A stretch of DNA of 64,000 nt from Acidimicrobiaceae bacterium (GTDB lineage: Bacteria > Actinomycetota > Acidimicrobiia > Acidimicrobiales > JAUTXP01): positions 38,326 through 102,325 of the forward strand of contig JAUTXP010000046.1 of the NCBI GenBank assembly GCA_030837965.1, read 5' to 3'. Made by a program: the position numbers and the translations under genes. The notes beneath the pieces were generated by a model. The model did no database searches. It saw only the letters and a list, made by a program, of their open reading frames with translations, and was not told the DNA's origin. Each line of letters opens with the position of its first letter. Position 1 is the stretch's first letter. Shown one piece after another: positions 22,100 through 52,530 of the stretch.

Positions 22100-22140
<41 letters not shown>

Positions 22141-30303: not shown

Positions 30304-30335
30304 GGCCGATCGACACTTGGTGAGATGATCGAACG

Positions 30336-32026: not shown

Positions 32027-32047
32027 TCACTGGCCCCCACGAGATCG

Positions 32048-32917: not shown

Positions 32918-32925
32918 CGGTCGCG

Positions 32926-34236: not shown

Positions 34237-34264
34237 CCGAACAGCGTATGGCAAGATCGGCGGC

Positions 34265-35407: not shown

Positions 35408-35410
35408 ACG

Positions 35411-36355: not shown

Positions 36356-36375
36356 GGAGGACGACGTCATGCACG

Positions 36376-36972
36376 ATGCGAGCGCGGCCCCGTGCGATGC
36401 CCCGTGAGGCCGAGTGGTTCGTGCGCTCGGACGCGCAGCTGGAGCGGTCAGTCTTGTTCGATCGACTGCCGAAGCACTCGAGGGGCGCGGAGGTCGGGGT
36501 GTGGACGGGTGAGTTCTCGGCCCAACTGCTCGCAATGGTCGAGCCGAGGGAGCTGCACCTCGTGGACCCCTGGCGGTACCGGACCGAGGACGAGTTCAAG
36601 GGCGCGAGCTACGCCGGTGGCATGGCGCGGGACCAGTCCGACATGGACCAGCTCCACGAGTTGGTCCTGACCCGTTTCGCGGGTGACCAACGCGTCCACG
36701 TGCATCGGCTGGACTCGGTGTCCGCGGCGGGTGAGTTCGCTCCCGGCTCTCTCGACTGGGTCTACCTCGACGGGGACCACCGCTACGAAACGGTGCTCGC
36801 GGATCTTCATGCCTGGCGACCGCGGATTGCTCCTGGAGGAATCTGCAGTGGAGACGACTACGGTGAAACAGGGTGGTGGGGCAACGGCGTCACAGAGGCG
36901 GTCGACCGGTTCGCCTCGGAGCTCGACGTCGCGTTAACCATCCTCGGGCACCAGTTCGTGATGCAGCTCTGA
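36376..36972 (+). CDS. Class I SAM-dependent methyltransferase (Methyltransf_24/TylF-like)
   Basis: 'EVGVWTGEFS', 'VYLDGDHRYE' and 'GGICSGDDY'. An alternative ATG is at 36397. Confidence 0.65.
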   Translation: MRARPRAMPREAEWFVRSDAQLERSVLFDRLPKHSRGAEVGVWTGEFSAQLLAMVEPRELHLVDPWRYRTEDEFKGASYAGGMARDQSDMDQLHELVLTRFAGDQRVHVHRLDSVSAAGEFAPGSLDWVYLDGDHRYETVLADLHAWRPRIAPGGICSGDDYGETGWWGNGVTEAVDRFASELDVALTILGHQFVMQL

Positions 36973-37003
36973 GGACAGCGGTGACCGCATTGGCGCTACC
37001 GCG

Positions 37004-37957
37004 ATGATCTTCGTCGGGGGCATGCCCCGTTCGGGGACGACACTGCTGACCCAACTCGTCGGCACTCACCCGGAAATCTATTCCGTGCCCGAGGAGACGC
37101 GGTTTATCGTCGACCCGGACGGCGTCGGTGAACTCCTCGAGTCGTTGACGAGCGGTTGGGCCGGACCCAGCGTCGCCGGCGTGCGAATCCAACGGTTCCG
37201 AAAGTTGATGCTCACGCACCTCGTCGATCGCGACACCGATCCGTACATTGACTTCTGCATGTACGACTATTTTGACGAGACCCTGTACAGGAACGCCGTC
37301 GAGGACTTTATCGGGCAGTTGGCCTGTTGCACGTTCGAAGGCAAGGCAGCCGCGTCGACGGAGCCGGGCCGGTACGTGCCCCGGTGGTTCCCGGAAGAGA
37401 CGCTCGTCGGGCTGGCCCGGCAATTCGTCTCAACGCTGTTCGGTGGCCAAGCCCAGTTCGACGACAAGGCGATCTGGTGCGAGAAGACGCCCCACAACCT
37501 CGTCTCGCCCTACCCGCGGAAGCTCTTTCCCGACGCCCACTTCCTGCACGCTGTCCGCGACCCACGTGATGTCGCAGCCTCGATCGCGTCCGACCAGACC
37601 GCACACGGTTCGGGTGCGCCTGGCATCTGGGGCACGGGCTCGGTCGGAGCTGCTCTCGACTGGATTCACGAGTACTGCCGGCGGTGGGAGGCGCTCGCTG
37701 CCGGCGGTCGGTTCGACGGGATCAGGATGCTGCAGGTCGACTACGAGGACCTGGTCCGGGACCCGGACGCCACGATGGCGCGGGTCTTCGCCTTCGTCGG
37801 CGTCGACCCGGTCGAACCGGACCGGTGGACCGAGCCGCTGGATGCATCGGCGATCGGCCGGCACACAACCAGCTTCTCGAAGGACGACCACGTCCTGTTC
37901 GAGGCCCGCGTGGCGCCACTCTGGCGTCGGCTATTCGCTACGGCCGACGACTCATGA
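37004..37957 (+). CDS. PAPS-dependent sulfotransferase
   Basis: 5'-PSB loop 'GMPRSGTTLL' and a 3'-PB region 'HAVRDPRDVAAS'. Confidence 0.8.
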   Translation: MIFVGGMPRSGTTLLTQLVGTHPEIYSVPEETRFIVDPDGVGELLESLTSGWAGPSVAGVRIQRFRKLMLTHLVDRDTDPYIDFCMYDYFDETLYRNAVEDFIGQLACCTFEGKAAASTEPGRYVPRWFPEETLVGLARQFVSTLFGGQAQFDDKAIWCEKTPHNLVSPYPRKLFPDAHFLHAVRDPRDVAASIASDQTAHGSGAPGIWGTGSVGAALDWIHEYCRRWEALAAGGRFDGIRMLQVDYEDLVRDPDATMARVFAFVGVDPVEPDRWTEPLDASAIGRHTTSFSKDDHVLFEARVAPLWRRLFATADDS

Positions 37958-38713
37958 GCGGTACGCGAGCACCCGCAGGCGTCGACTCAGAACCGTGAAT
38001 GGCTCACCGGCGTCACCGGTGACCTGTACCTCGGCGAAACCGGCGTCTCGAAGCCACGAGGTGATCTCCGGAACGGTGAACGCTCGGACGCTGTAGCGAC
38101 TGGTGCTGACCCCCGAGCCGACGATCGCGATGCGTTCACCGAAGTATCGACTCGTGATCGGATCGAGCGTCGTCGTGTCGAAGAGGATGTCCTCACCGAC
38201 GCGCTGGACGTCGGTCTTCGCACCACCGCCTGCGACGAGCGAAGGAATCATGCGGTATGGCGACTGGAGGTCGACGACGAGGACACCGCCGGGATCCAGG
38301 GCCCGGTGATAGGACGTCAGCACCCGCTTGTCCTCGTCGTCACCGAAATAGCCGAACGATCCGTACCAACAGATCGCCACGTCGAAGCCTCCGCGGAACG
38401 GCAGGTCGGCCAGATCCGCCTGGCAGAGTGTGATGTCGACCAACGCTTCGTCGGAGGCGCGGCGGGCGAGCTCGAGGAATCGCCGGCTGCGGTCCGCGCC
38501 GGTGACGCGCAGACCCCGCGACGCCAGGGCAACGGCGTGCCGACCGTGCCCGCACGGCGCGTCGAGCAGTCGCTGCCCGGAGCGCTCGCCGAGGAGGAGG
38601 AGGATCTCGTCGACGTCTGCACGGGTGGCTGCCGCGGTGAGGATCGGGAACTCGAAGCGCTCGTAGTCCTCCCCGAACATCGCCGCTAACGCCTGACGGT
38701 CAGGCACGTCCAT
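37952..38713 (-). CDS. Class I SAM-dependent methyltransferase
   Basis: 'LLDAPCGHGRHAVALA' motif I. ATG at 38713. Confidence 0.75.
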   Translation of the reverse strand: MDVPDRQALAAMFGEDYERFEFPILTAAATRADVDEILLLLGERSGQRLLDAPCGHGRHAVALASRGLRVTGADRSRRFLELARRASDEALVDITLCQADLADLPFRGGFDVAICWYGSFGYFGDDEDKRVLTSYHRALDPGGVLVVDLQSPYRMIPSLVAGGGAKTDVQRVGEDILFDTTTLDPITSRYFGERIAIVGSGVSTSRYSVRAFTVPEITSWLRDAGFAEVQVTGDAGEPFTVLSRRLRVLAYRS

Positions 38714-39006
38714 CGCGGCCTGATCCCTCCGCCCGGGCGACGAGCGTGGCCGACTCCTGCGCCAGCCCCGCGTCACGACACCGTTCAAGCACCATGGTCC
38801 ATCGGGCGCGCTGCGGCCGAGTCATCCGCAATTATGGCCATTGCGTGACGGTGCCGGCCGACTTCGTCGTGACGTCGTCGGTACCATGCCGCATTGGCGC
38901 AAGTCCTGCATTGCTCGTCTCCTTCATCGGACCCAACAGGGGTGGATGGAAGGACGGCAGGAACGATGCGGAGGCGTCGACCGCGGTCGGACACTTCGGG
39001 CCGAAA

Positions 39007-39060
39007 GGTGTACCAAGCAGGTGTACCGGGCCTGGGGCGCGTATTTCCGCCCGGTACACC
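39007..39060. repeat. GGTGTACC direct repeat plus a 12-bp inverted repeat (GGTGTACCGGGC / GCCCGGTACACC)
   Basis: Copies at 39007-39014 and 39020-39031, with the inverted partner at 39049-39060. The set lies about 50 bp from the tRNA-Lys 3' end. Confidence 0.6.
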
Positions 39061-39111
39061 AGACGATCTGATAGCTCCGGAGAAAGCCCTGCTCCCGGCG
39101 GTGCTGCTTAG

Positions 39112-39183
39112 TGCGCCCCCTGGGATTCGAACCCAGAACCTGCGGATTAAGAGTCCGTTGCTCTGCCATTGAGCTAGAGGCGC
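39112..39183 (-). tRNA. tRNA-Lys (anticodon CTT)
   Basis: A hand-folded cloverleaf: acceptor GCGCCTC/GGGGCGC, T-loop TTCGAAT, anticodon loop CTCTTAA. 72 nt, with no encoded CCA. Confidence 0.9.
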
Positions 39184-39217
39184 ATTGGCGGTCGTTTTCG
39201 GGAGTCGACCGCTGGCG

Positions 39218-39292
39218 GGTGACCGAGGGGACTCGAACCCCCGACCTCCAGGGCCACAACCTGGCGCTCTAACCGACTGAGCTACGGCCACC
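39218..39292 (-). tRNA. tRNA-His (anticodon GTG)
   Basis: An extra G at position -1, anticodon loop TTGTGGC, T-loop TTCGAGT. 75 nt. Confidence 0.9.
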
Positions 39293-39410
39293 AAGCGGCG
39301 GACAGCATTGCACAGTCGAGGCAACCGCCGAACCGGCAGTGTACCGACACCGGCGGACCCGCTCCCCGAGTTCGACCCGTTGTGCGATCAGCGTTCAGCC
39401 AATTGTGCGA

Positions 39411-39641
39411 TCAGCGATCGGCGTCGGCCTCCAGACGACGAGCCACCTGGATCCACCGCAGCCCAGCGACCCGGTCTTCGAGATTGCCCGCCAGGTCAGT
39501 CTGACCTGCATACCGGGCCGCGGCGGCCGCCTCGGCCAGTTCATGCACCAGGGCCTGGGCCGACTCGTCCGCCGCTCGCCGGACATCCCGGTCATAAGCC
39601 ACGACGCCATCTTGCCAGCAGCGCCCGTGCCGTGCGGCCAT
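39411..39641 (-). CDS. Small hypothetical protein (76 aa)
   Basis: ATG at 39641 and an alpha-helical, Ala-rich sequence. The support is weak. Confidence 0.3.
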   Translation of the reverse strand: MAARHGRCWQDGVVAYDRDVRRAADESAQALVHELAEAAAAARYAGQTDLAGNLEDRVAGLRWIQVARRLEADADR

Positions 39642-39690
39642 GCTCCCATGCCCGGTCTGCCGTCGGGCCGGGCGGTACCCTCGCCCCACG

Positions 39691-42600
39691 ATGGAGGAGA
39701 CGCCCGCCGTCACCAGGGAGCGTGTGCGGAAGGCGTTGTGGCGGGACGTGCTCCCGGCCGTCTACGGGCCGACTGCGCCGCTTGCCGTGTCGGCCCATCA
39801 CGTCGGGGGCGAGCCGATTTCTGTGGCCGCGGCCATGCCTGCTTCGTACGAGCCCTTCGAGGTGGGCGGCGAATGGGGCGCAGCGTGGGACACGACGTGG
39901 TTCCGCCTGCACGGGCGCATCCCGGACGACTGGCGCGGCGCCGAGGTGGTGGTGCGAGTCGGGCTCGGTTATCAGGGCATGGTCGGGTTCGGCGCCGAGG
40001 CAATCGTGTGGGAGGACGGTGTGCCCGCGCAGGGCTTGTCGCCGAAGCACTCGACATACCGCATCACGGAGAAGGCCGCTGGCGGAGACGTGGTCGACGT
40101 CTTGTTGGAGGCGGCCGCCAACCCCATCGCCGATCTCGACGCCCGGCCCGCTCCGTCGCTGCGACCGGACTACGGCGGCGCGCCGCGCTTCCGACTGGAC
40201 CGGGCCGAGTTGGCCGTGTGCAACCGCGAAGTCGAGGGACTGGTCTTGGACATGGACGTCCTGTTGGACCTGTACGACCATCTTCCTCACGACGAGCCGA
40301 GGGCCAGTCGCATCCTGCGCTGTCTGGTGCGGGCCCTCAACGTCCTCGACTTCGACAACGTGGCCGACACGTCGGCCGCGGCGCGAGACGTGCTGGTTGA
40401 GGCGATGTCGGTACGCGCTCCATCGAGCGCGCATCGGCTGGCGGCCGTGGGCAACGCCCACATCGACACGGCCTGGCTCTGGCCCTTCCGGGAAACGGTG
40501 CGCAAGTGCGCGCGCACCTTCAGCACAGCGCTGCGCCTCATGGACGAGTATCCCGACTACCGCTTCGCCTGCTCGCAGCCGCAGCAGCTCGCGTGGATGA
40601 AGGAGCAGTACCCCGAGCTGTTCGAGCGCATCAAGGACCGGGTGCGCGAGGGACGCTTCGAGTTGGTGGGCGCCATGTGGGTGGAGGCCGACTGCAACGT
40701 GCCTTCGGGCGAGTCGTTGGTGCGCCAGATCGCGCACGGATGCAGGTTCCTGGAGGACGAGTTCGGGGTCACACCGGGCGAGGTGTGGCTGCCCGACGTG
40801 TTCGGCTACTCGGCCTCACTGCCGCAGATCATGCGCCGGGCCGGGATCACCCGCTTCCTCACGCAGAAGCTGTCGTGGAGCACGGTCAACCGGGTTCCCC
40901 ATCACACGTTCTGGTGGGAGGGGATCGACGGGTCTCGCGTGCTGACCCACTTCCCGCCTGCGGACACGTACAACGGCGACTTCAGCATGGACCAGCTCGA
41001 GCACAACGTGCGCAGCTTCAAGGACCACGACGTGTCGGGGCGGTCGCTCTACCTCTTCGGCTACGGCGACGGCGGCGGTGGCCCCACCCGGGAGCTGTTG
41101 GAGAAGGCGGCGCGCTATCGCGACATCGAGGGCGCGCCGCGCGTCGAGATGTCGAGCGTCGAGGAGTTCTGGGAGGCAGCCCAGGCCGAACTGTTGGCCG
41201 CGGGCGACAGGGCGGGCGTCTGGGTGGGAGAGCTTTACCTGGAGTTCCACCGCGGCACGTACACGACGTCCGCCATGTCCAAGCGCGAGAACCGCTCGCT
41301 CGAATTGCTGTTGCGGGAGGCCGAGCTTTGGTCCGCGGTCCGGCCCGACGGGCTGTCCCACTATCCCAGCGCGGGTTTGGACAAAGCATGGAAGGACGTC
41401 CTGCTGCTTCAGTTTCACGACGTGCTCCCGGGGACCAGCATCGCCTGGGTCTACGACGACAGCCGTTCGATGTACGCGTCGGCGCGAGCCGCGGCCGACT
41501 CGGCCATCAGTGCGGCTGTGCACGCCTTGCTTGACGGCGTCGACACTTCGGGGATGGAGTCGCCGGTGGCCATCCTCAACTCGTCACCGGCGCGTCGGCG
41601 TGAGGTGGTAAGCGTGTTCGGCGAGCCCCACTTGGTCGACGTTCCCGCGCTCGGCTATGTCGTCATCGACGGGGCCCACGCGGGCGGGGCCGACGGCGTC
41701 GTCGTGGGCGATCGCACCTTGGAGAACGAGCATCTGCGGGTGACCTTGGCGGACGACGGCACGCTGTCCTCCGTCTGGGACAAGGACGCAGGCCGGGAGG
41801 TCTTGGCCGCCGCCTCGCAGCCGGCGGACGGTGCCCGCGGCAACCTCTTGCAACTCCACGAGGACCGCCCGCCCAACTGGGACGCGTGGGACATCGACGC
41901 GTCGTACATGGACAAGGCTGATGACCTCGACGCCGTCGAGTCGATCACCGTCGTCGAGGGCGGCGGCCTGGTCGGGTCACTGCGAGTCGCTCGGGCATTC
42001 GGCCGTTCCCGACTGGCCCAAGACGTGGTCTTGCGCGCAGGCTCACGTCGGATCGACTTCGTCACGGAGGTCGACTGGCAGGAGAGTCACAAGCTGTTGA
42101 AGGCGTCGTTCCCTGTCGACGTTCATGCTCGCCGGGCGACGTATGAGATCCAGTACGGACATGTCGAGCGGCCCACGCACCGCAACACGAGTTGGGACTG
42201 GGCCCGGTTCGAGGTGTGCGCACAGAAGTGGGTCGACCTGAGCGAGCCCGGCTACGGCGTTGCGCTGTTGAATGACGGCAAGTACGGACACGACGTGTTC
42301 GGCAACGTCATGCGTCTCTCGCTGCTGCGGGCGTCGTCGTCACCCGCTCCCGACATCGACCGCGGGGTGCACCGGTTCACGTATGCGCTGTTCCCCCACG
42401 TTGGCGACCTCCGCGAGGCGGGGGTGATCGAGGAGGCGTACGCCCTGAACCTGCCGTTGCGGGTGGTGCCGCTGACTGGGCATGGAGGGTCGGCGGGCGC
42501 TGCCTCTGCCCGGTCGTGGGCCCCGTTCGCCGTGTCCGCCCCCGGTGTCTTCGTCGAAGTCGTCAAGCGAGCCGAGCGGACAGACGCTGTCGTTGTGCGG

Positions 42601-42786
42601 CTTTACGAGGCATGGGGCAGGCGCACGCGCGCCAGGCTGTCGACCGTCTTGCCATTTGCAACGGCCGCGGTCACCGATCTGTTGGAGCGCAGCCGCACGC
42701 CGCTGCCCCTTGTCGATGGTGCACTCTCGCTCGACCTGCACCCGTTCGAGATCACGACCCTCGTGTTCGAGCTCACGCCGGAGTAG
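39691..42786 (+). CDS. GH38 alpha-mannosidase
   Basis: 'GNAHIDTAWLWPFRET', 'FACSQPQQLAWM' and 'GAMWVEADCNVPSGESLVRQ' motifs. 1031 aa counted from the ATG at 39691. Confidence 0.9.
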   Translation: MEETPAVTRERVRKALWRDVLPAVYGPTAPLAVSAHHVGGEPISVAAAMPASYEPFEVGGEWGAAWDTTWFRLHGRIPDDWRGAEVVVRVGLGYQGMVGFGAEAIVWEDGVPAQGLSPKHSTYRITEKAAGGDVVDVLLEAAANPIADLDARPAPSLRPDYGGAPRFRLDRAELAVCNREVEGLVLDMDVLLDLYDHLPHDEPRASRILRCLVRALNVLDFDNVADTSAAARDVLVEAMSVRAPSSAHRLAAVGNAHIDTAWLWPFRETVRKCARTFSTALRLMDEYPDYRFACSQPQQLAWMKEQYPELFERIKDRVREGRFELVGAMWVEADCNVPSGESLVRQIAHGCRFLEDEFGVTPGEVWLPDVFGYSASLPQIMRRAGITRFLTQKLSWSTVNRVPHHTFWWEGIDGSRVLTHFPPADTYNGDFSMDQLEHNVRSFKDHDVSGRSLYLFGYGDGGGGPTRELLEKAARYRDIEGAPRVEMSSVEEFWEAAQAELLAAGDRAGVWVGELYLEFHRGTYTTSAMSKRENRSLELLLREAELWSAVRPDGLSHYPSAGLDKAWKDVLLLQFHDVLPGTSIAWVYDDSRSMYASARAAADSAISAAVHALLDGVDTSGMESPVAILNSSPARRREVVSVFGEPHLVDVPALGYVVIDGAHAGGADGVVVGDRTLENEHLRVTLADDGTLSSVWDKDAGREVLAAASQPADGARGNLLQLHEDRPPNWDAWDIDASYMDKADDLDAVESITVVEGGGLVGSLRVARAFGRSRLAQDVVLRAGSRRIDFVTEVDWQESHKLLKASFPVDVHARRATYEIQYGHVERPTHRNTSWDWARFEVCAQKWVDLSEPGYGVALLNDGKYGHDVFGNVMRLSLLRASSSPAPDIDRGVHRFTYALFPHVGDLREAGVIEEAYALNLPLRVVPLTGHGGSAGAASARSWAPFAVSAPGVFVEVVKRAERTDAVVVRLYEAWGRRTRARLSTVLPFATAAVTDLLERSRTPLPLVDGALSLDLHPFEITTLVFELTPE

Positions 42787-44405
42787 AGCGAGGTGGGCCT
42801 GCGCCTACCCTGGATCGTCTTGCCCTGGTAGCTCAGATGGATAGAGCACCGGACTTCTAATCCGATGGTCGCAGGTTCGAGTCCTGCCCAGGGCGCTGTC
42901 TGCGCCAGCGCGCGAACCAGCTTCGGCCCTGTGCTGCCGGTCGGGACGCGGAAGGTCGGGACGATGGGCTGGCGGCTGGTGACCTTGATCTCGGCGATCA
43001 GGGCCTGCATGAGGGCCTTGCGCTCCGGCCACCCGCCCTTGGTCAGCGCGGTGCGGACATGGCTCGTGAGGGCCTTCATGGTCTTGGCATCCGGCACCGC
43101 GAAGTCGCCGTCGCCGTCACGTGCCGCTGCGTCCTCCAGGGCTTGCGCGATTGCCGCTCGTCGGGTGCGGAGGTCTGCCGCCCGCTCGCCCAGGTCGCGG
43201 ATGCGCTTGACGAGCGTGTCCTCCTTGAGCCCGCCGCTCTCGAAGGAGTCCATGTAGCGCTCGATGCCGGCTTCCGTCTTGGCCAGCTCCGTGTCGACGG
43301 CGGTCAGCTCCTTGCGCTGCTGGTCCTTGACCTCCTCGGCCCGCTTGCGGATGGCCTCGATGGCCCGCTCGAACAGGTCCGTGCGCTCGTAGGTCCGAAG
43401 GAGGCTGTCGACCACCTGGCGGTCGAGCTCCTCGCTGGGGACGCGGTCGGTGGCGCAGACCTTGGAGCCGTAGCGGACCTTGGTGCCGCAGGTGTAGTAG
43501 CGGTACTGGTAGCCCGCCCGCCCGTTGGCCACGCCGCCCACGAAGTGCGCCCCGCATTTGGCGCACACTACGAGGCCGCTCAGCAGGTAGGGCGACGAGT
43601 TCGCCCCGAGGCGGCGGGAGTTGTAGGCCCGCTCGCTGCGGATGGCCTGGGCCGCGTCGAAGACGTCCTTGGCCACCAGCGACGGGTGCTTGCCCTGGTG
43701 CCACTGGTCCCGCCAGTTCACCTCGCCGACGTAGACCCGGTTGCGGAGGATGCGGATGACGTTGGTGTAGGTCCACAGTCGCCCCGCCGAGTTCCGGTGC
43801 CCGTTGGCGTTGAGCCAGTCGGCCACGCCGTGCCCGCCCAGGCGGCGCTTCACGTAGAGGTCGAAGATGATCGGGATGAGCGCGGCCTGGTCCTCGTTCA
43901 CCACGAGGTTGCCGTCGTCGCCCCGCACGTAGCCGAACGGCGCGGACCCGACCGGCCACTCGCCGCGTGCCGCCTTGCGCTCCAGCCCTGCCACGATGCG
44001 GTCGACGATGGTGGCCCGCTCGAACTCGGCGAACACGCCGAGCATCTGCACCATCATCCGCCCGGCTGGGGTCGTCGTGTCGAACGGCTCCGTCGCTGAG
44101 CGGAAGGCGACGCCGGCCTTGTCGAGCTCTTCGAGCAGGTGCGCCAGGCCCCGGACTGAGCGGGCGAAGCGGTCGACCCGGTAGACGAGCAAGAGGTCGA
44201 AGCGCTTGGCCTTCGCCTCCCCGATGGCCCGCTGGAGGCCCGGGCGGTCGGTGGTTGCGCCGGACTTCTGGTCGGTGAAGCTCTTCACCAGTTCCCAGTC
44301 CGGCTGGCTGTCGATGTAGGACTGGAGGCGGGTGGCCTGGGCCTCCAGCGAGTACGGCTGGTGCGCCTCGTCCGTCGAGGTGCGGGTGTAGGTGGCGACC
44401 CTCAT
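42603..44405 (-). CDS. Large serine recombinase (resolvase domain + recombinase domain + zinc ribbon + coiled coil)
   Basis: 'VATYTRTSTDE' (catalytic Ser region), 'LLVYRVDRFARS' and 'CAKCG...YYTCG'. SD GGAAGGAG precedes the ATG at 44405. The ORF has no stop before the tRNA, so the last 97 codons or so (42603-42895) are antisense read-through of tRNA-Arg and the GH38 3' end. Confidence 0.85.
   Translation of the reverse strand: MRVATYTRTSTDEAHQPYSLEAQATRLQSYIDSQPDWELVKSFTDQKSGATTDRPGLQRAIGEAKAKRFDLLLVYRVDRFARSVRGLAHLLEELDKAGVAFRSATEPFDTTTPAGRMMVQMLGVFAEFERATIVDRIVAGLERKAARGEWPVGSAPFGYVRGDDGNLVVNEDQAALIPIIFDLYVKRRLGGHGVADWLNANGHRNSAGRLWTYTNVIRILRNRVYVGEVNWRDQWHQGKHPSLVAKDVFDAAQAIRSERAYNSRRLGANSSPYLLSGLVVCAKCGAHFVGGVANGRAGYQYRYYTCGTKVRYGSKVCATDRVPSEELDRQVVDSLLRTYERTDLFERAIEAIRKRAEEVKDQQRKELTAVDTELAKTEAGIERYMDSFESGGLKEDTLVKRIRDLGERAADLRTRRAAIAQALEDAAARDGDGDFAVPDAKTMKALTSHVRTALTKGGWPERKALMQALIAEIKVTSRQPIVPTFRVPTGSTGPKLVRALAQTAPWAGLEPATIGLEVRCSIHLSYQGKTIQGRRRPTSLYSGVSSNTRVVISNGCRSSESAPSTRGSGVRLRSNRSVTAAVANGKTVDSLARVRLPHAS
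42822..42895 (+). tRNA. tRNA-Arg (anticodon TCT)
   Basis: Acceptor GCCCTGG/CCAGGGC, anticodon loop CTTCTAA, T-loop TTCGAGT. 74 nt. Confidence 0.9.
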
Positions 44406-45292: not shown

Positions 45293-45444
45293 GTCGGTTC
45301 CTCCAGTTACGAATCGGCCAGGCCGGGGGGTGTTGCTGCACCGCCCCGGCCACTGTCGGTTGTCAACCGGCCACACGACCGGCCCGACGTGGATAGGTCA
45401 CCTCCGCCGCGAACTTCAACAACCAGCGCCGCGTGACCGTCTAG

Positions 45445-45696
45445 TTAGAGCAGTTCAGAGGAGACCACGTGCATCAGCGGAGCCTGACTTGGTTCCCGCA
45501 CGCCGCCGGCTGACCGCGCTGGCAACCCGGTGGGACGCTGGCCTTGTAGCGTGGGTCGACCCCAGTCGACGGCGTCAAGGATCAAGACTTGCGCCGCCGG
45601 ACTCAGAGCGCTTGGCGGGAGGGATCTGAGATATTCCGCCGCGTGCTTTGCGCACTCGTCCAGCCAGCTCGCCTCACGGCGATTCGGCAAGGACAT
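45445..45696 (-). CDS. Hypothetical small protein (83 aa)
   Basis: ATG at 45696 has AGGAG 8 nt upstream. It lies between the deaminase and the 123-aa ORF. Confidence 0.4.
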   Translation of the reverse strand: MSLPNRREASWLDECAKHAAEYLRSLPPSALSPAAQVLILDAVDWGRPTLQGQRPTGLPARSAGGVREPSQAPLMHVVSSELL

Positions 45697-45765
45697 GTTT
45701 GATGCTCCTGGGGACTGGTCGGCCACGATCGAGACGATACGGGGTGGGTGTAACAACAACGCGCA

Positions 45766-47529
45766 TCATGTGGCGGGCTGCCCTTCTCCGCTCGCACGAA
45801 GAGCGTCTCCGCCCGCGTCGGCACTGGCGCCTGCGTCTAGCACTGGAGGCGGGCCTGTCTCGGTGGCGGGGGCACTGCCAACGGCGTCTTCTGGTTCGGC
45901 CCGCGCCGCGATTGGAACGTAGACCGGTTCGATTGCTCCCGACGCAAGACCGTTGAGGACCTGTGAGATCGACGTGACTACCGTCGACTCACGCTCTCGA
46001 ACGCCATTCTCATTCCAGCCAGCCGTCTGCGGCCATGCCTTCATCCGGTCCCACTCGATGATCTGATCGCCAACCCTACGTTCGCCCGCACGAAACGCGG
46101 TCGCATACAGCCGAGGCGCGATGCCGAAGAATTGATGAAAAGGCACGCGTCTACCACTCAATCCAGAGGTCCCGTACAACTCGGGCTCGGTGTCAATGAG
46201 ATCTCGGTACAGGCGGCTCACGAGACTTTTTGGATAGGGCTCGACGTAGTGAACCTCGGTGATCCCGGCGCCAATGATCATCTTGGCGCATTCGTGGCAC
46301 GGGAAGGTCGTCGTATACATCATTGCATCGGTGGTAGCGATGCCAGCCCGAGCAGCATTGACGATCGCCGATTGCTCTGCATGGAGACACCTGGTGAACT
46401 CGATGAGCGCCGACGCCCTAGCGCCTTCGAGGACTGACTCTCCCTCATCAGACGACTCGGTCGCCCTTGCCAGGAGTTGCGGGCCGGTCAGCGAGCGGAG
46501 CTCATCTACGAGCCATCCGCGCCTGGCAAGCCGCTCAAGCATCTCCTGGATCACCCGTTTCGTGTAAACCGGATTTGGATCCGAGCCCACCTGGAAGTCC
46601 CGGTAGTCCGGAACATCGCCACTCCAGTACTGGCCACCGCCAGGCTTCGGAACCTCGTTAGTCCCTACGATCATCGGTGTTCCGATACGCGGGACGATTG
46701 TTGCCCCCACTTGACGGCCAGCCGCTGCCGATCGCAGGCTTGCGTCGAATGCAAGGCGCATCGCTTCTTCAGCTGGCCGGGGCGTGGCAAAGGGAGCGCC
46801 GAACACGGCGTCGATAAAACGATCTACTTCGTGCGCGACGATCAACCCCCTGCCGCTGGGCAAATAGACATCCGCCATCGAGTACACGGCGCGGACGTTC
46901 TGGCCAAAGTCTTGCTCTTCCGAGTCGGATTCATCGCGGGCAATGAGGTTCTCCGCCTCCGAGCGAGGGTTCTCAAAGAGCGAGAGATGGTCCGCCAAGG
47001 CTTGCCGGCGTTCTTCGATGCTGCTCGCAACTGCAACCAACAGAAACGCGTCGCCGTAGACATGCCGCAGAAGGTGTACTTCCGATGGGTTCTTGAGGCT
47101 GCGAAGAACAAAGGCAGATTCCTTGGGTTTCGGTCCGCGCCGCTTGACGATTGCGGTCACAGCCAAGGCTGCGAGGGCTGCGGCGTTGCCTACGGCACCC
47201 CGGAGCTCATCGCCTGCGTTCATCCGTAGGCGGTAGTACTCACGCTCGCCGCGTTTCGGCAGCGTCCCCCACGGCGCAAAGGGAGTCGTATCCAGTAGGT
47301 CCGACAGCCTGACGGACTCGTACCCGTAGCCGAACCGGCGCAGCGAGTCGCGCAGTGCCGTCTCCACGTCGTCGAGCGGAGTCCCGACAGGTGCTACCAG
47401 AGCAAGGATCAGGGGGTGGCGTTCCGGGTCGCGCCTGATGACCTTGCCAAGGGACTCGCGCGCGCGAGTCGCGACGGTCGTTGGGTCGGCCTGTGACTTC
47501 GTCCCCTTCTTGCCCGGTTTTGTCGGCAT
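45766..47529 (-). CDS. Anti-phage dCTP deaminase-type protein (AvcD/DCD-like): N-terminal kinase/NTPase-like domain + C-terminal CMP/dCMP-type zinc deaminase
   Basis: Deaminase zinc motifs 'CLHAEQSAI' (HAE) and 'FPCHECAKMI' (PCxxC). An N-terminal region of about 250 aa carries a degenerate P-loop ('LVAPVGTPLD'). Confidence 0.75.
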   Translation of the reverse strand: MPTKPGKKGTKSQADPTTVATRARESLGKVIRRDPERHPLILALVAPVGTPLDDVETALRDSLRRFGYGYESVRLSDLLDTTPFAPWGTLPKRGEREYYRLRMNAGDELRGAVGNAAALAALAVTAIVKRRGPKPKESAFVLRSLKNPSEVHLLRHVYGDAFLLVAVASSIEERRQALADHLSLFENPRSEAENLIARDESDSEEQDFGQNVRAVYSMADVYLPSGRGLIVAHEVDRFIDAVFGAPFATPRPAEEAMRLAFDASLRSAAAGRQVGATIVPRIGTPMIVGTNEVPKPGGGQYWSGDVPDYRDFQVGSDPNPVYTKRVIQEMLERLARRGWLVDELRSLTGPQLLARATESSDEGESVLEGARASALIEFTRCLHAEQSAIVNAARAGIATTDAMMYTTTFPCHECAKMIIGAGITEVHYVEPYPKSLVSRLYRDLIDTEPELYGTSGLSGRRVPFHQFFGIAPRLYATAFRAGERRVGDQIIEWDRMKAWPQTAGWNENGVRERESTVVTSISQVLNGLASGAIEPVYVPIAARAEPEDAVGSAPATETGPPPVLDAGASADAGGDALRASGEGQPAT

Positions 47530-47597
47530 GGCGTCGCGACAGGATAGAGGTGTGCGCGGCAGCGCTGCGGCGGTGAGGGGGCAATTCCCTCCTCTGT

Positions 47598-47636
47598 TCC
47601 CGCCATGGGCATCCCGCGTCCCGCCATGGGCATCCC
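47598..47636. promoter_or_regulatory. Two perfect 18-bp direct repeats (TCCCGCCATGGGCATCCC), 21-bp period
   Basis: Copies at 47598-47615 and 47619-47636, in the divergent region between the deaminase and the TGT-like gene. Confidence 0.5.
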
Positions 47637-47670
47637 CGCAAATGCGGCAGCCGACGGAGAAAATGATGGG

Positions 47671-48741
47671 ATGGCATCAGTCTCTACTCGAACGCCCGAG
47701 GCCAAAGCACGTGTTCGCCGGGCGCAGTTGCTCGTCTACGCGGGCCGCAATGAGGTTGCAGCGAGGCAGGACGTACATTTGAGGCGCGGCATCATCTTTC
47801 ACGGTCGGCTCGGCGCGGTCGAGGCCGCAGGCTTGAGGAGCCGCGGGTTCACTGGGGCGCTTGCGGTGGACCCCGAGCGCTATACCAAACTCAACGAGCA
47901 GCCGCCGCGCTTGATCAGCGATGCCGATCTCTGCGCCACCGAGCAGGCGACGCTTGGGGTTTCCGCATACTTTGCGCCTTCATTCGCCACTCAACGAACC
48001 CAAGCGTCATTGCTCTCTGTGCTCGAAGATGGTGCCTCCTTTCTCTCCGCCGTGGAACGAACGGGAGCTTCGGCGCCTGCTTACGTATCCGTTGTTGTCA
48101 CTCCGTTCTGGCTCTCGGAGGGCCTCGACGTCTTAGAGACGGCCGTTCGAGATTTCGCACGACCTATCGCCTTCGTGTTCGCAGCACCATTCGATCCCCT
48201 GGGATCTCAAGCTGCCGTCGAAGGCGCACTTCGGTTGATCCAGGCCTCGGCCGGGGCCTTCATCCTTCGGTGTGACCTCTCGGCGATCGGGCTCGTGGCC
48301 GGTGGAGCGATGGGCGGTTCGGTGGGTGCATCCGCTACCACAAGACACCTCGGCATGCCGCTTCGGAATGCTCGGCGTGACAGATCGAGCAGGGACAACT
48401 CGTTGCACGTCTTTGTTCCTCGCCTCCTGAGCTGGCCTCGCGGGTCGACGCTGGAGCACCTCGCTGACGATCTCGACGTCTTTGTGTGTCGATGCGGCGT
48501 TTGCCAGGGAGATTCGCTGCTTCGGTTCCGTGAGGCTTCGCGGGCCGTCGAGGCAGAGCGTCACGCTGTGGCAGCTTGGGCCGCGATCGCTGACGCAGTG
48601 CTTGGTGACAATGACCCGATCGCTCGGTGGCGAAGCGTTCTCGAGAGTGCCGACAACGCTTACGGCGAGCTCGAGGCTGACGGCGTAGCCCTCGGTCGGC
48701 CTGGATTCATTCGCGCGTGGCTTTCAGTGCTCCCTGCGTGA
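47671..48741 (+). CDS. tRNA-guanine-transglycosylase (TGT)/DpdA-like protein, tentative
   Basis: 'CRCGVCQG...(16 aa)...RH' fits the TGT CxCxxC...H zinc motif, and 'VAGGAMGGSVGAS' resembles the TGT GGLAVGE strand. The start may instead be 47605. Confidence 0.4.
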   Translation: MASVSTRTPEAKARVRRAQLLVYAGRNEVAARQDVHLRRGIIFHGRLGAVEAAGLRSRGFTGALAVDPERYTKLNEQPPRLISDADLCATEQATLGVSAYFAPSFATQRTQASLLSVLEDGASFLSAVERTGASAPAYVSVVVTPFWLSEGLDVLETAVRDFARPIAFVFAAPFDPLGSQAAVEGALRLIQASAGAFILRCDLSAIGLVAGGAMGGSVGASATTRHLGMPLRNARRDRSSRDNSLHVFVPRLLSWPRGSTLEHLADDLDVFVCRCGVCQGDSLLRFREASRAVEAERHAVAAWAAIADAVLGDNDPIARWRSVLESADNAYGELEADGVALGRPGFIRAWLSVLPA

Positions 48742-49324
48742 CCATCGCGTTCCAGACCCGTTCCTGAACAAGCCACCTCCTCGGACCCGGCCGCACGTGT
48801 TCCCGTGTTGATGGCGAGAGCGTTGCACCGTCTCGCACAAGGCCAACTCCGACCCGTTCGGCTCTGGCGCTCCACGATGGCGCCCGGTTAACCACGAGAC
48901 CGCGTTCGGCGTCTGCAGCCAGTACGGAGATCGCCTCGAGGTCTCGCTCGCCTCGCGTTGCGCACCGGAGGACGCCGGTTAACTCGACGACTGGCCTGAA
49001 TATCCGGGTGACCGCGTCCTGGCTCCAGCTCAATGCCCATCGGGGCACTGACTCGAGAACTGCACGGTGGGCGAGTTCGAGAGATCGGAGCGGAACGGCG
49101 ATCTCCTCGGGCAGGGAGCCAAACGCCCGGAGTATGTCGCGGTCGAGAAGTGCGCCTGCTCCTGAGCGCCGGCCAGCCTCCGCCGCGTCCACTAGGCCGA
49201 TGGCCCACACGTTCACGTTGGCGAGTTGGATTTCAACGAGAGGCCTTCCCGCCCAGCCGAAGGCCTCAGCGAGCGAGGTGGCGTCGGCCCGTGTCAACCC
49301 GGTCTCGCTTGTGGCTGTCCTCAT
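48707..49324 (-). CDS. Hypothetical protein (205 aa)
   Basis: A coherent ORF whose 3' end overlaps the TGT-like gene by 35 nt (convergent). No motif recognised. Confidence 0.5.
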   Translation of the reverse strand: MRTATSETGLTRADATSLAEAFGWAGRPLVEIQLANVNVWAIGLVDAAEAGRRSGAGALLDRDILRAFGSLPEEIAVPLRSLELAHRAVLESVPRWALSWSQDAVTRIFRPVVELTGVLRCATRGERDLEAISVLAADAERGLVVNRAPSWSARAERVGVGLVRDGATLSPSTREHVRPGPRRWLVQERVWNAMVTQGALKATRE

Positions 49325-49650: not shown

Positions 49651-50760
49651 CTACGAACCGCCCTCACCGGCGGGCAGGCGGTTGTACAGCCAACCTCGGC
49701 CTTGTTCTCGCCACGGACAATCGTTTTCGCCTGGAGTCAGTAGCCCTCCGGGATCGACGGTCGGCCCGAGCACTCGATATCGGTTGTGGAGCGTCTTGCC
49801 GTCCTTCTCCACCAGGCCGTCGCGGTCGGCGCGGCGCTGGGTGATGCTCACCTGGTCGGCTCGTTGCCACGACGTGCAAACGAGGATCACGTGGGCGTGA
49901 TCACCTCGCTCCTCCTCGAAGCGGTCGTAGCGGTAGAGCTCATCGAGCAGCTTCTCGACTGAGCCGCCGGGGTCGGGGACGAGAAAGAACTGCTCGACCC
50001 GGCTCTCCTCCTGCCACTCGCCGAACCAGGCCTCCCGGATGATCCCCTGAGTCCACTTCTCGACTTCCTCGGGCCGCATCCAGTCCAGCAGCTTGCAGCG
50101 TGGGTTGACCCGCTGGGTCGCCACGAGGCGGGCGTAGAACGCGCTAACGGCCACGCTGCGGGCCAGGACGGCCCGACGGGCCAAGGCGATGCCGAACGCG
50201 CCCCGGTAGCGGCGGACGGCCTGGTCGACGTTGGCACCAGTCCACGCCGCGACCACCGCCGCTCCTTCACGCCCGAGCACGTAGTGGTACGGCTCCGAGC
50301 CGCCGCCCTCCCGGTAGGGGCGGAAGCGGTCGAGGACGCCCATCTCGTAGAGCTGCTTCAACCGGACGAGCCCGCGGCCGCGGGTGTCGAAGAACATCTC
50401 GCAGATGTGGTTGGCCGTCAGCACGTTCAGCCTCCACACGGCGCGCACGATCTCCAGGTCTCGGTCGGTGAGGCGGGGGAGCAGTCGATAGCGGTAGTCG
50501 CCTGAGTGTGGGCGGGGACGGGACTGAGGGGACGCTGGTCCCCTCAGGAGTCGGGTTTCCGACTTCGCGCCCGTGACCCGCCGACGACCAGCGCCTTTGC
50601 GGCTGTCCTCCGCGAAGTCGAGCGCGGATGCGGTCACCACCGACTCCGCGAGCGACTTCGCGCCCGATGTTGCGCCCGACTCTGCGGGCCACAGCGGGGC
50701 CGTCACTTGCCCGGCTCCGACTCGACGCGGGGCTTGCGCGAGTACGGCCGACTCAGGCAC
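49651..50760 (-). CDS. Replication-relaxation family protein
   Basis: 'LTDRDLEIVRAVWRLNVLTANHICEMFF' and 'RLKQLYEMGVLDRFRP', typical of actinobacterial plasmid/AICE replication-relaxation proteins. Confidence 0.65.
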   Translation of the reverse strand: MPESAVLAQAPRRVGAGQVTAPLWPAESGATSGAKSLAESVVTASALDFAEDSRKGAGRRRVTGAKSETRLLRGPASPQSRPRPHSGDYRYRLLPRLTDRDLEIVRAVWRLNVLTANHICEMFFDTRGRGLVRLKQLYEMGVLDRFRPYREGGGSEPYHYVLGREGAAVVAAWTGANVDQAVRRYRGAFGIALARRAVLARSVAVSAFYARLVATQRVNPRCKLLDWMRPEEVEKWTQGIIREAWFGEWQEESRVEQFFLVPDPGGSVEKLLDELYRYDRFEEERGDHAHVILVCTSWQRADQVSITQRRADRDGLVEKDGKTLHNRYRVLGPTVDPGGLLTPGENDCPWREQGRGWLYNRLPAGEGGS

Positions 50761-50818
50761 AGAGGCTCGGCCTCGATGAGCGGCGGGGGGTTTCCGCCAT
50801 CAGTTAGGTGCAAGTGCC
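50759..50818. repeat. Copy A of a 60-nt repeat (extended similarity from 50737)
   Basis: 58 of 60 nt are identical to 51570-51629. It contains GGCGG-N7-CCGCC. Confidence 0.85.
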
Positions 50819-50912
50819 AAGCATGAAATACATCGAGACTTCTCAGAACTCAGAGAAGAATGCATACGTGAAGACCACGGCCGCCGACCGCGCATCGCGA
50901 TATCGTGATGTC

Positions 50913-51122
50913 ATGACGAAGCAGACGACCGTGCGACTCCCGGACGAGCTGGCCGACGAGGCCGAGGCGGTCGCGCGCGTCAAGGGCACGAGCGTCAACG
51001 CGCTCATCGTGGAGTCGCTTGCCGCCGAGATCCAGCGCGTCCGGGCCGACAAGGACTTCACCAAGCGGGCCCGCAAGCTCTTGGAGCGGGACAAGGAGCT
51101 GCTCGACCGCCTCGCCCGTTGA
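50913..51122 (+). CDS. Ribbon-helix-helix antitoxin
   Basis: 'TTVRLPDELADEAEAVARVKGTSVNALIVESL' RHH pattern. Its stop overlaps the Doc start. Confidence 0.7.
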   Translation: MTKQTTVRLPDELADEAEAVARVKGTSVNALIVESLAAEIQRVRADKDFTKRARKLLERDKELLDRLAR

Positions 51123-51517
51123 CGCGCTACATCACCCTCGCCGAGTACGTCTGGCTCGCGGAGCAGGTGACTGACGTGGAGACCGCGGTGCTTGCTAAGG
51201 CGTCCCGGCTCGACCTGGCCGACTCGGCCCTCCACGCGCCGCAGGCCGGCTTCGGCGACGACGACTTCTACCCGGACGCGATCGACAAGGCTGCGGTGCT
51301 CACGTGTCGGCTTTCGTGGAACCACTCCCTGCCCGACGGCAACAAGCGGGCGGCCTGGGCCGCCCTGGTCGTGTTCCTCGACCTCAACGACTGGGTCTGG
51401 GAGCCGGACCCGCCGGACGTCGACGAGGCCGAGGCCGCCATACAGGCGGTCGCCGCGGGCGAGGTCGATGAGGCATGGCTCGCGGACTGGCTCCGTGCCC
51501 GCGTCCGGCGGGCTTGA
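51119..51517 (+). CDS. Doc (death-on-curing, Fic-fold) toxin
   Basis: 'NHSLPDGNKRAAWAA' is a Fic/Doc-type motif (compare H.F.DGNKR). The TTG start overlaps the upstream stop. Confidence 0.75.
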   Translation: MTRYITLAEYVWLAEQVTDVETAVLAKASRLDLADSALHAPQAGFGDDDFYPDAIDKAAVLTCRLSWNHSLPDGNKRAAWAALVVFLDLNDWVWEPDPPDVDEAEAAIQAVAAGEVDEAWLADWLRARVRRA

Positions 51518-51569
51518 CGCGCTCACTTCTCGACCCCCGAACGTCGTCGCGAGTAGGGCCTCGACAGAT

Positions 51570-51629
51570 ACAGAGGTTCGGCCTCGATCAGCGGCGGGGG
51601 GTTTCCGCCATCAGTTAGGTGCAAGTGCC
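51570..51629. repeat. Copy B of the 60-nt repeat (extended similarity from 51547)
   Basis: 58 of 60 nt are identical to 50759-50818. It lies 41 bp upstream of the Phd-like antitoxin start. Confidence 0.85.
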
Positions 51630-51670: not shown

Positions 51671-51859
51671 GTGAAAGAGATCTCCGCCACCGAGGCAGCT
51701 CGCGGATTCTCCGACATCCTCGACGCAGTCGAGCATCGACGACAGTCGTTCGTCGTCGTCCGGGGCGGGCACGCCGTGGCCAGACTGGAGCCGGTCGCCG
51801 CTGTTGACGGCAAGGCTCTCAAGACGCTGCTCGCCAAGCACAAGCCCGACAGGGCATGA
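51671..51859 (+). CDS. Phd/YefM-type antitoxin
   Basis: 'ISATEAARGFSDILDAVEHRRQSFVVVRGGHAVARLEP'. ATGA overlap with the PIN gene. Confidence 0.7.
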   Translation: MKEISATEAARGFSDILDAVEHRRQSFVVVRGGHAVARLEPVAAVDGKALKTLLAKHKPDRA

Positions 51860-52308
51860 CTCAAGGAACTGACCGAGATGCGCGAGGCGCTGCCCGTCGA
51901 GGAGCGGTCCTGGCCAGCCTGATCCTCGACGCGTCGGTTCTTGTCGATGCAGAGCGGCAGGGCACGAAGCTTGCGCAGATCGTCGCTGACGACGACGACG
52001 TGGCGATCGCCGCTATCACGGTCGCCGAGCTTCTCGTCGGGGTCGAGCTTGCTAACGGGAAGCGCCGTGTCGCAAGGCAGAAGCTTGTCGACGCCATCAT
52101 CGACACGCTGCCGATCGAGGACTACGACCTCAACGTCGCCCGGCGGCACGGCGAGTTACTCGCGCACGCCCGACTCGCCGGGCAACCCCGCGGCGCGCAC
52201 GAACTCGTCATCGCCGCCACAGCGGTTGCTCGCCGCCGGATTGTTGTGACCGCCGATGCCCGAGGCTTCGACGGTCTGCCCGGCGTGACCTACCGTGCCA
52301 TCCGCTGA
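51856..52308 (+). CDS. VapC-type PIN-domain toxin
   Basis: 'LILDASVLV', 'ITVAEL' and 'VVTADARGF' supply the PIN acidic residues. Confidence 0.75.
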   Translation: MTQGTDRDARGAARRGAVLASLILDASVLVDAERQGTKLAQIVADDDDVAIAAITVAELLVGVELANGKRRVARQKLVDAIIDTLPIEDYDLNVARRHGELLAHARLAGQPRGAHELVIAATAVARRRIVVTADARGFDGLPGVTYRAIR

Positions 52309-52363
52309 CCTCTCCGGGCGCACCACCATGTGTAAGGCGGGACGACCGAGATCGGAGCTGTTT

Positions 52364-52530
52364 CGCTGTCCGCATCACCGCGCGGAACCAACTTCGGGCC
52401 TGTGCTGCCAGTCGGGCCGCGGAAGGTCGGGACGATCTGCTGGCTCGACTCGCCCTTCACTTCGCGGATCAGGCCTTGCGTGGGCCTCACCCGTGACGGG
52501 CTGCGGGCCTTTGTGATGGTGCGGTCGCGG
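52364..52530 (-). pseudogene. 3' remnant of a second, diverged large serine recombinase
   Basis: 'TQGLIREVKGESSQQIVPTFRGPTGSTGPKLV' aligns with the intact 'MQALIAEIKVTSRQPIVPTFRVPTGSTGPKLV'. 46 of 50 nt are identical between 52387-52436 and 42916-42965. Confidence 0.7.

Follow-up and report, generated by a model that had tools for sequence, protein, structure and literature searches.

The stretch of DNA analysed here (the window: 64,000 nucleotides (nt) of the Acidimicrobiaceae bacterium assembly GCA_030837965.1, contig JAUTXP010000046.1, positions 38,326 to 102,325) carries on its reverse strand, at 45766–47529, a gene whose 587-amino-acid (aa) product corresponds by profile matches to a two-domain deaminase of deoxycytidine tri- and monophosphate (dCTP/dCMP) belonging to the AvcD / anti-phage dCTP deaminase family. 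Directly after the deaminase gene, in the same orientation, lies a small gene (45445–45696) for a conserved 83-aa protein, hereafter p83 (NCBI QOK43_2197), which synteny and the ratio of non-synonymous to synonymous substitution (dN/dS) mark out as a candidate partner or regulator, and the two genes, judged by their arrangement across related loci, probably form a two-gene operon, a novel variant within an established defence family. On the other side, 141 bp (47530–47670) separate the deaminase gene from an oppositely oriented gene for a 356-aa protein resembling tRNA-guanine transglycosylases (TGTs). The 587-aa open reading frame (ORF) had been reported at these positions in a preliminary description of this DNA made from the sequence alone, and both the ORF call and an identical protein held by NCBI (QOK43_2198, a 'hypothetical protein' from a 119.7-kb contig of an Acidimicrobiaceae metagenome-assembled genome) agreed with that report. 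The gene has a guanine plus cytosine (GC) content of 62.4% and a third-position value (GC3) of 0.69, as against a window background of ~70% GC and GC3 values of 0.85–0.95 in neighbouring chromosomal genes.

An AlphaFold model of the deaminase, built from 60 homologues, returned a mean predicted local distance difference test score (pLDDT) of 83.6 and a predicted template modelling score (pTM) of 0.78, and was weak only in two insert loops and in residues 541–587. When compared with the PDB using Foldseek, the N-terminal half matched the adenylate-kinase-related structures 3h0k and 3lw7 together with UMP/CMP and adenylate kinases (5ukd, 1uky), and the C-terminal half matched the dCMP deaminases 2hvw, 2w4l, 1vq2 and 7fh4; the preliminary description of a nucleotide-kinase-like region joined to a deaminase bearing HAE and PCHEC motifs is therefore correct. 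The first domain (residues ~38–245; 46795–47418, reverse strand), supported also by alignments, is adenylate-kinase-like with a P-loop nucleoside monophosphate kinase fold modelled at pLDDT >90, and the second (residues ~250–500; 46030–46782, reverse strand) has the dCMP deaminase fold, with alignments and a match to Pfam dCMP_cyt_deam_1 (PF00383; E = 1.4e-16) across residues 253–429 that is stretched by a family-specific insert (~290–375) containing the conserved pattern KPGGGQYW..D..RDF. Alignments placed the HAE motif at residues 383–385 (46375–46383, reverse strand), with His383 as zinc ligand and Glu385 as the catalytic residue, and PCHEC at residues 410–414 (46288–46302, reverse strand), with Cys411 and Cys414 as further zinc ligands. 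Both motifs were invariant across the 60 homologues and occur also in the Escherichia coli and Vibrio members. In AvcD of Vibrio cholerae, E384, C411 and C414 are essential, and S52 and D162/Q163, which occupy Walker A- and Walker B-like positions, are needed for toxicity (AvcD preprint).

The P-loop position of the kinase-like domain aligned as APVGTP, with neither GK[ST] nor a lysine, the same position being GAVGSG in the E. coli member and GAVGTE in the Vibrio member. Other residues of the domain were invariant (K146, E150, R174, D199, G209-Q210 and D220), and the motifs SLK(H/N)PxE, RDxxD...GQ and AD(V/F) were common to the window, E. coli and Vibrio proteins. At the opposite end of the protein, residues 541–587 (45769–45909, reverse strand) form a tail that is disordered in the model (pLDDT <50), acidic and rich in Ala, Gly and Pro, just as had been described beforehand: the last 45 aa have a net charge of −6, and the last 73 aa consist of 60% A/G/P/S/T and 12% D/E. 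Comparison of the 60 homologues indicated that nearly every member of the clade carries, after a conserved helix, a non-conserved tail of 40–75 aa that is usually acidic, and the variable acidic tail is thus a trait of the whole clade rather than a peculiarity of the window protein.

Assignment to a family was made principally with two curated models. The PADLOC dCTPase model PDLC02373 matched residues 31–521 with E = 4.5e-127 and 423.5 bits, the corresponding positive controls scoring 553–585 bits, and the NCBIfam model NF041025 ('anti-phage dCTP deaminase') was covered from position 2 to position 434 of 437 with a score of 359.8 bits, for which the curated cutoff is 400 bits. Calibration of the latter score on named members and relatives gave 504 bits for the protein of a Vibrio nigripulchritudo plasmid and 483 bits for that of a 4.6-kb E. 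coli plasmid, both named by the NCBI Prokaryotic Genome Annotation Pipeline (PGAP), and 452 and 407 bits for more distant relatives from Acidobacteriaceae and Actinomycetospora, respectively. The clade mates of the window protein all fell below 400 bits (Rhodococcus plasmid, 364; P0015, 351; P0002, 344), which is why both the protein from the metagenome-assembled genome and its Rhodococcus counterpart in RefSeq bear the label 'hypothetical'. Direct comparison with the PGAP-named protein of the E. coli plasmid gave 32% identity over 472 collinear aa spanning both domains (E = 7e-59), and anti-phage dCTP deaminases so named by PGAP on plasmids of Vibrio, E. coli and Klebsiella were 31–34% identical to the window protein over residues 24–485. 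A database search gave more than 1,100 homologues. The window protein is, on these sequence comparisons, a divergent clade member of the AvcD / anti-phage dCTP deaminase family for which one formal membership score falls short, and the family named in the preliminary description has accordingly held; the clade, mostly from Acidimicrobiia and other Actinomycetota, is missed by current NCBI naming rules.

Since the catalytic core resembles that of dCMP deaminases, the protein might instead be a housekeeping enzyme of pyrimidine metabolism of the ComEB/Dcd type. The ComEB model TIGR02571, however, scored only 53.8 bits, its cutoff being 219, and did so solely across the zinc-motif segment (residues 379–433), ComEB itself is a single-domain protein of ~150 aa rather than 587 aa, and the window protein possesses an additional 210-aa kinase-like domain and family-specific inserts, is encoded on a low-GC mobile segment and has its best matches among defence-family models, so that a housekeeping role is hardly credible. 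A Pfam match to the MafB19-like polymorphic-toxin deaminases (31.8 bits) was also considered, and was rejected because it spans just the shared zinc-motif segment (382–435).

Two observations concern other members of the family. The ~4.6-kb plasmids of E. coli and Klebsiella form a family carrying little besides the PGAP-named anti-phage dCTP deaminase (locus L076, 942–2525). At four further loci the deaminase gene is frameshifted or interrupted (L013, 6001–7597; L024, 5992–8095; L034, 6001–7646; L073, 2315–3888); three of these retain an undamaged copy of the small downstream gene, the L013 copy being frameshifted at its C-terminus; the disruptions could represent either decay of a toxin or errors of long-read assembly.

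The p83 gene, which the preliminary description did not mention, begins 69 nt beyond the deaminase stop codon, on the same strand, and an AGGAG sequence is located 8 nt before its ATG. A p83 homologue occupies the same place at the closest related locus, L001, and a profile built from the first such hits was then run on the 18 clade loci with deaminase identities above 50% (L001–L015, L024, L034 and L035). A homologue was found on the same strand, 13–111 nt after the deaminase stop codon, in all 18. Plasmid pUSK13_1 of Rhodococcus sp. USK13 also carries a p83 homologue after a 45%-identical deaminase, RefSeq calling both proteins hypothetical, and with the window itself included the small gene was thus present at the same position in 20 of 20 loci, drawn from several orders and covering deaminase identities of 45–67% (examples are L001, 7650–7904; L003, 7766–7993; L074, 4642–4902). 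Members of the p83 family share 20–38% identity and the motifs W..RA..AE..L.SIP...LGPAGR.LV and ...GI(D/E)GG...SQLPLL. Pairwise dN/dS values of 0.13–0.28 indicated purifying selection, and the p83 gene is therefore translated and under constraint, rather than specifying an RNA. The deaminase and p83 genes of the window share a reading frame, with one stop codon and 23 codons between them, and a read-through fusion of the two was considered as a candidate product; it was rejected as the shared frame is not conserved, the spacers elsewhere being 13, 29, 49, 53, 56 or 89 nt.

A profile search of 5.8 billion proteins extended the p83 family to 48 members of 56–102 aa, none of them named or possessing a Pfam domain, at least 10 of which are encoded on the same contig as a deaminase hit. 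No match to p83 was found in Pfam, NCBIfam, PADLOC or PHROG, nor did its profile match any PDB sequence. A search of the literature for a protein partner or solved structure of AvcD/dCTP deaminase returned only surveys. Some related database members (P0163 and P0165–P0167) are of reduced length and end without the C-terminal QLPLL motif. The genomic settings of four relatives were looked up. One (L073) follows a frameshifted deaminase gene, and the other three, with weaker scores, are at loci without a deaminase (L070, 4001–4207; L071, 4001–4207; L072, 4001–4237), situated in one case between THAP4_heme-bd and FdhD housekeeping genes, in another among LRV/HEAT-repeat proteins, and in another near a transposase. 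Some of these orphans are shorter forms without the C-terminal motif. Orphan copies fit either an 'orphan antitoxin' or a protein with an independent function.

Small genes are also retained by more distant relatives of the deaminase. In Acidobacteriaceae, Nocardioides, Agrococcus, Antrihabitans and Hoyosella, small ORFs with Shine-Dalgarno-like sites begin just after the deaminase stop codon or overlap it, and their dN/dS values of 0.15–0.45 again indicated purifying selection. They are of several types (EKGWL...WP, RPDWTKRRMP and SESRMMAEFARA), and the deaminases that they accompany pass the NCBIfam cutoff. Representative positions are L016, 7502–7669; L021, 7475–7651; L027, 7490–7660; L019, 7643–7795; L020, 7632–7781; L023, 5270–5452; and L028, 7655–7828. 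No homology between these ORFs and p83 was detected (hhalign probability 1%), and the distant ORFs are therefore treated as families that are either separate or unrecognisably diverged.

These distributions bear directly on the main rival to any regulatory role for p83, namely that the small gene is merely co-inherited with a self-contained enzyme run by its kinase-like domain, by nucleotide allostery or by its acidic tail. Defence catalogues file dCTP deaminase as a one-gene system, and the family is modelled as a single protein both in PADLOC (PDLC02373) and in NCBIfam (NF041025); relatives of p83 also occur without a deaminase. Neutral hitch-hiking, however, rarely survives divergence of the extent seen among the 20 loci, at which the position is constant, the spacing stays within 13–111 nt and several orders are represented, and the distant relatives likewise keep a small downstream ORF under selection. 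Co-inheritance is for these reasons considered rather improbable, while the alternative, that p83 is a regulator of the deaminase and most simply a short-lived protein inhibitor, is advanced as a tentative proposal only, drawn from gene position and patterns of substitution.

The preliminary description had suggested a different form of control, in which the non-coding stretch of about 140 bp upstream of the deaminase gene would contain structured repeats and an RNA comparable to AvcI, the small RNA that regulates AvcD. AvcI (DifV), a non-coding RNA of 152–174 nt, is encoded directly ahead of the deaminase gene, is read in the same direction and transcribed together with it, and requires its own promoter; systems homologous to AvcID have a small pseudo-ORF in the AvcI position, with no sequence similarity between systems (AvcD preprint). 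The existence and length of the non-coding stretch proved correct (47530–47670, 141 bp), provided that the divergent gene starts at 47671 (MASV...), a start preceded by the Shine-Dalgarno-like site GGAGAA and identical to that of the 356-aa NCBI call. The remainder of the suggestion fared less well. When folded as an RNA the 141-nt region gave −54 kcal/mol, compared with −56.7 kcal/mol for shuffled sequences (z = +0.70; 151 of 200 shuffles folded at least as well), and its repeats are two exact direct copies of an 18-nt sequence. A blastn comparison of 350 nt upstream of the deaminase gene at 16 loci revealed no similarity between the window region and any of the 15 related loci. Rfam searches at gathering thresholds identified only three tRNAs in the whole window, and nothing at all across 45300–47900 at E values up to 1; a promoter and terminator scan of the latter interval found no sigma-70-type site, and a single terminator-like site that lies in coding sequence and is no more than expected by chance.

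The two copies of the 18-nt repeat (TCCCGCCATGGGCATCCC; 47598–47615 and 47619–47636) are 21 bp apart from start to start, are unique within the window (0.09 such occurrences being expected by chance), and lie 35–73 nt before the ATG of the TGT-like gene and 69–107 nt before that of the deaminase gene. No such 18-nt repeat was present in the equivalent upstream region of L001. With a spacing of about two helical turns, the tandem repeat looks like a putative protein operator within a divergent promoter, and not like an RNA. The deaminase ATG has no Shine-Dalgarno sequence in front of it, and at −17 to −12 relative to it stands the hexamer TATCCT, of TANNNT type, a combination which suggests that the leader of the deaminase transcript may be very short or absent.

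The possibility that a small RNA from the upstream 141 bp inhibits the deaminase, and that its decay after phage-induced transcription shut-off frees the enzyme, can be assessed against these data. The enzyme is homologous to AvcD-family proteins, and an AvcI-like layout is indeed evident on the E. coli plasmid L076, where a 60-codon ORF (705–887) ends 54 nt before the deaminase gene. The distance upstream of the gene varies from 49 to 350 nt in other clade members, some of which have 200–350 nt, and the lack of upstream conservation is not decisive because AvcI homologues themselves share no sequence similarity. Nonetheless, where 152–174 nt plus a promoter would be needed, only 141 bp are available in the window and 117 bp in L001 (67% deaminase identity, same gene order), in each case shared with the divergent promoter, and the gap is as little as 49–66 nt in other members. 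Furthermore, the folding energy, the Rfam result and the absence of likeness to the 15 related upstream regions all count against such an RNA, and the sole notable feature of the region is a tandem direct DNA repeat of a kind typical of operators. An AvcI-type RNA gene upstream of the window deaminase is not supported, since the space is too short and the sequence gives no positive indication of one, and RNA-based control of this type appears very unlikely.

The deaminase gene is on an integrated segment of ~9.5 kb beside a tRNA-Arg gene, with a GC content of 66.1% as against 70.0% in the rest of the window. A tRNA search located tRNA-Arg(TCT) at the left end of the segment (42822–42896, forward strand), and 18 nt from it, inside the 3′ end of a large serine recombinase gene, lies one copy of a 60-nt direct repeat (42914–42973), the second copy of which (52385–52444; 90% identical) is 9471 bp away at the right end. 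The recombinase (42603–44405, reverse strand) contains Resolvase, Recombinase and zinc ribbon domains. In the integrated state its reading frame crosses the left repeat and runs on past tRNA-Arg, which lies on the other strand. The C-terminal peptide of the recombinase, IVPTFRxPTGSTGPKLV, is encoded by each of the two repeat copies. Recombination between the repeats would, as predicted from the sequence, give the enzyme a different and shorter C-terminus. The right repeat and ~90 nt beyond it (within 52290–52470) resemble a fossil recombinase 3′ end (…IREVKGESSQQIVPTFRGPTGSTGPKLV…). Domain matches identified, in addition, a Replic_Relax (replication-relaxation) protein (49651–50760, reverse strand) and two toxin-antitoxin pairs on the forward strand, the first consisting of a weak ribbon-helix-helix-type match (Arc/HicB/Rv0623-like; 50808–51122) followed by Fic/Doc (51119–51517), and the second of Phd/YefM (51671–51859) followed by PIN (51856–52308). 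The earlier statement that the deaminase is 'on the element' is thereby substantiated by the repeats, the tRNA-Arg gene, the recombinase and other segment genes, and the low GC and GC3. One copy of an 82-nt direct repeat (50737–50818 and 51548–51629; 89% identical) precedes each toxin-antitoxin pair and may represent a duplicated promoter/operator cassette. To the left of the tRNA cluster, a further ~20 kb of the window (22000–42000) have a GC content of 66–68%, compared with 70–74% at the window start.

The gene content of the segment brings with it another explanation, that the deaminase and p83 constitute mainly an addiction module which stabilises the segment, phage defence being a by-product at most. 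The gene order, toxin first and a small gene after it, is that of some type II toxin-antitoxin systems, two classical pairs are already present on the segment, orphan p83-like genes exist, and p83 is retained at several loci where the deaminase gene is disrupted. Overexpressed AvcD is also toxic (AvcD preprint). By way of contrast, tested members of the family protect against phage, relatives adjoin other defence genes (KwaA in L078), the disruptions of the deaminase gene may be assembly errors, and no antitoxin domain was detected in p83; an addiction module is consequently regarded as unlikely.

The preferred reading is that of a nucleotide-depleting defence enzyme of the AvcD family, located on a mobile segment and encoded, in the absence of AvcI, in a two-gene operon with p83, and to this reading as a whole we assign a probability of roughly 0.7. 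AvcD-family enzymes in Vibrio and E. coli deaminate dCTP and dCMP, and block phage when host transcription stops (AvcD preprint). By analogy, the window enzyme would convert dCTP and dCMP to dUTP and dUMP once phage infection shuts off host gene expression, and the loss of dCTP and dCMP would starve phage DNA synthesis. Were p83 a labile inhibitor, it would disappear when infection stops host gene expression, thereby releasing the enzyme, and would serve as the protein counterpart of the Vibrio AvcI RNA. We infer the enzymatic activity and the phage-defence role from the relationship to characterised members, and a possible interaction of p83 with the enzyme from the constancy of its gene.

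Several points weigh against this reading. At 359.8 bits on NF041025, the deaminase is under the curated 400, so that the NCBI criterion itself gives no guarantee of functional equivalence with the tested members; in addition, the canonical GxxxxGK[ST] motif is missing from its P-loop position. For p83, the evidence is positional and evolutionary: in the searches listed above it resembled no known antitoxin and displayed no recognisable or DNA-binding domain, three of its four sampled relatives stand apart from any deaminase, and the charge complementarity that might be anticipated between the acidic tail and p83 was absent (Spearman 0.29, p = 0.30). With regard to RNA control, a short leader RNA or an antisense transcript is still compatible with the sequence, and AvcI homologues are likewise unconserved (AvcD preprint). 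Finally, all of the data are sequences, and derive from metagenome-assembled genomes.

Beyond the window, it is possible, albeit doubtful, that in a large non-proteobacterial branch of the family AvcI was replaced by, or never occurred alongside, a small labile downstream protein, p83 being one example and the other ORF families of Acidobacteriaceae, Nocardioides and Antrihabitans being others, in which case orphan copies of p83 would serve by themselves as immunity factors.

The gene that diverges from the deaminase gene belongs to what is evidently a different entity. The 356-aa TGT-like protein (47671–48741, forward strand) is an unannotated predicted TIM-barrel, characterised by AlphaFold, Foldseek and synteny, with a CxCxxC...H zinc motif; its gene is convergent with, and overlaps, that of a 205-aa protein (p205; 48707–49324, reverse strand), its conserved partner in L001, L006, L078 and L079. 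At the loci examined, the TGT-like protein was always paired with such a convergent overlapping protein of ~210 aa, often with a helix-turn-helix (HTH) gene in addition. The pair is syntenic with the deaminase in L001 (4145–5817) and is 1–2 kb from it in L006 (8600–10409). It occurs without a deaminase in L078 (4459–6418), where an HTH gene accompanies it and the element also encodes Replic_Relax, a TrwB-like ATPase, an integrase and KwaA of the Kiwa system, and in L079 (170–1863), next to a PIN gene, and is therefore a separate module.

The 356-aa protein gave no Pfam hit even at E values up to 10 and no PADLOC hit, and p205 gave none in Pfam, NCBIfam, PADLOC or PHROGs. Relatives of the TGT-like protein numbered two by word-index search and 492 representatives by exhaustive search. 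Its model (pLDDT 91.9, pTM 0.91) had tRNA-guanine transglycosylases as its ten best PDB matches, all of them full length (E = 3.5e-5 to 5.8e-4, TM ~0.5). Within the zinc motif (C273-x-C275-xx-C278...H298), C273 and H298 were invariant in 47 relatives and C278 nearly so, and the family profile matched TGT weakly, exactly on the zinc-site segment. The protein is accordingly read, from its predicted structure, as a branch of the TGT/DpdA-like superfamily that has so far lacked annotation. Together with its ~210-aa partner on integrative elements, this TGT-fold neighbour provides a separate lead towards a nucleic-acid-modifying module.

Nucleotide-depleting deaminases are an established class of defence, and the enzyme itself is no surprise. 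In our judgement, the new elements suggested by these sequences are a currently unnamed clade of a known family and a constant small downstream gene, with a functional link between them that is proposed, and it is this constant gene which would make the arrangement a new operon variant rather than just another member. Labelled 'hypothetical' and just under the NCBI threshold, the Actinomycetota/Acidimicrobiia clade will be missed there by annotation-based defence censuses. If p83 does control the enzyme, one defence effector would be under an RNA in one lineage and a protein in another, which would bear on how toxic enzymes are silenced and how infection is sensed.

Comparison with known systems places the window protein at varying distances from each. 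The stand-alone dCMP deaminases of Streptococcus mutans (2hvw), human (2w4l), phage T4 (1vq2) and chlorovirus (bi-DCD, 7fh4) have the same C-terminal fold and zinc site, but possess neither the kinase-like domain nor the ~290–375 insert, and are metabolic or phage-encoded enzymes rather than agents of host defence. Human CDADC1, a dCTP-binding deaminase hexamer (9hfq–9hft), is related more tenuously still, by a weak sequence match to the zinc motif (E = 9.1e-6) and a marginal structural one (Foldseek E = 3.5e-4, TM 0.14–0.19), with no match to the kinase-like N-terminal domain. Toxin-first type II toxin-antitoxin operons resemble the arrangement in that a small gene, of which orphan copies exist, likewise comes closely after the gene for a large toxic enzyme and in the same orientation; they differ in that p83 has no known antitoxin or DNA-binding domain, and neutralisation by p83 is hypothetical.

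The closest counterparts are the defence enzymes themselves. The anti-phage 'dCTP deaminase' single-gene system (Tal et al. 2022; PDLC02373, NF041025) is represented by two models that both match both domains of the window protein, the differences being that the NF041025 score is sub-threshold and that the gene in this clade is paired with a small downstream gene. AvcD (DcdV, VC0175; V. cholerae AvcID) and its proteobacterial homologues have the same two-domain plan, the same HAE/PCxxC residues and the same location on mobile DNA, with 31–34% collinear identity to the PGAP-named members. The window clade departs from them in falling under the NCBIfam equivalog cutoff, in its longer, acidic and disordered tail, and in a P-loop that in the window protein reads APVGTP rather than GAVGSG or GAVGTE. 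Most conspicuously, where AvcD is preceded by the gene for the AvcI RNA, the window gene shows no upstream RNA gene of this type and is followed instead by the conserved 83-aa gene downstream.

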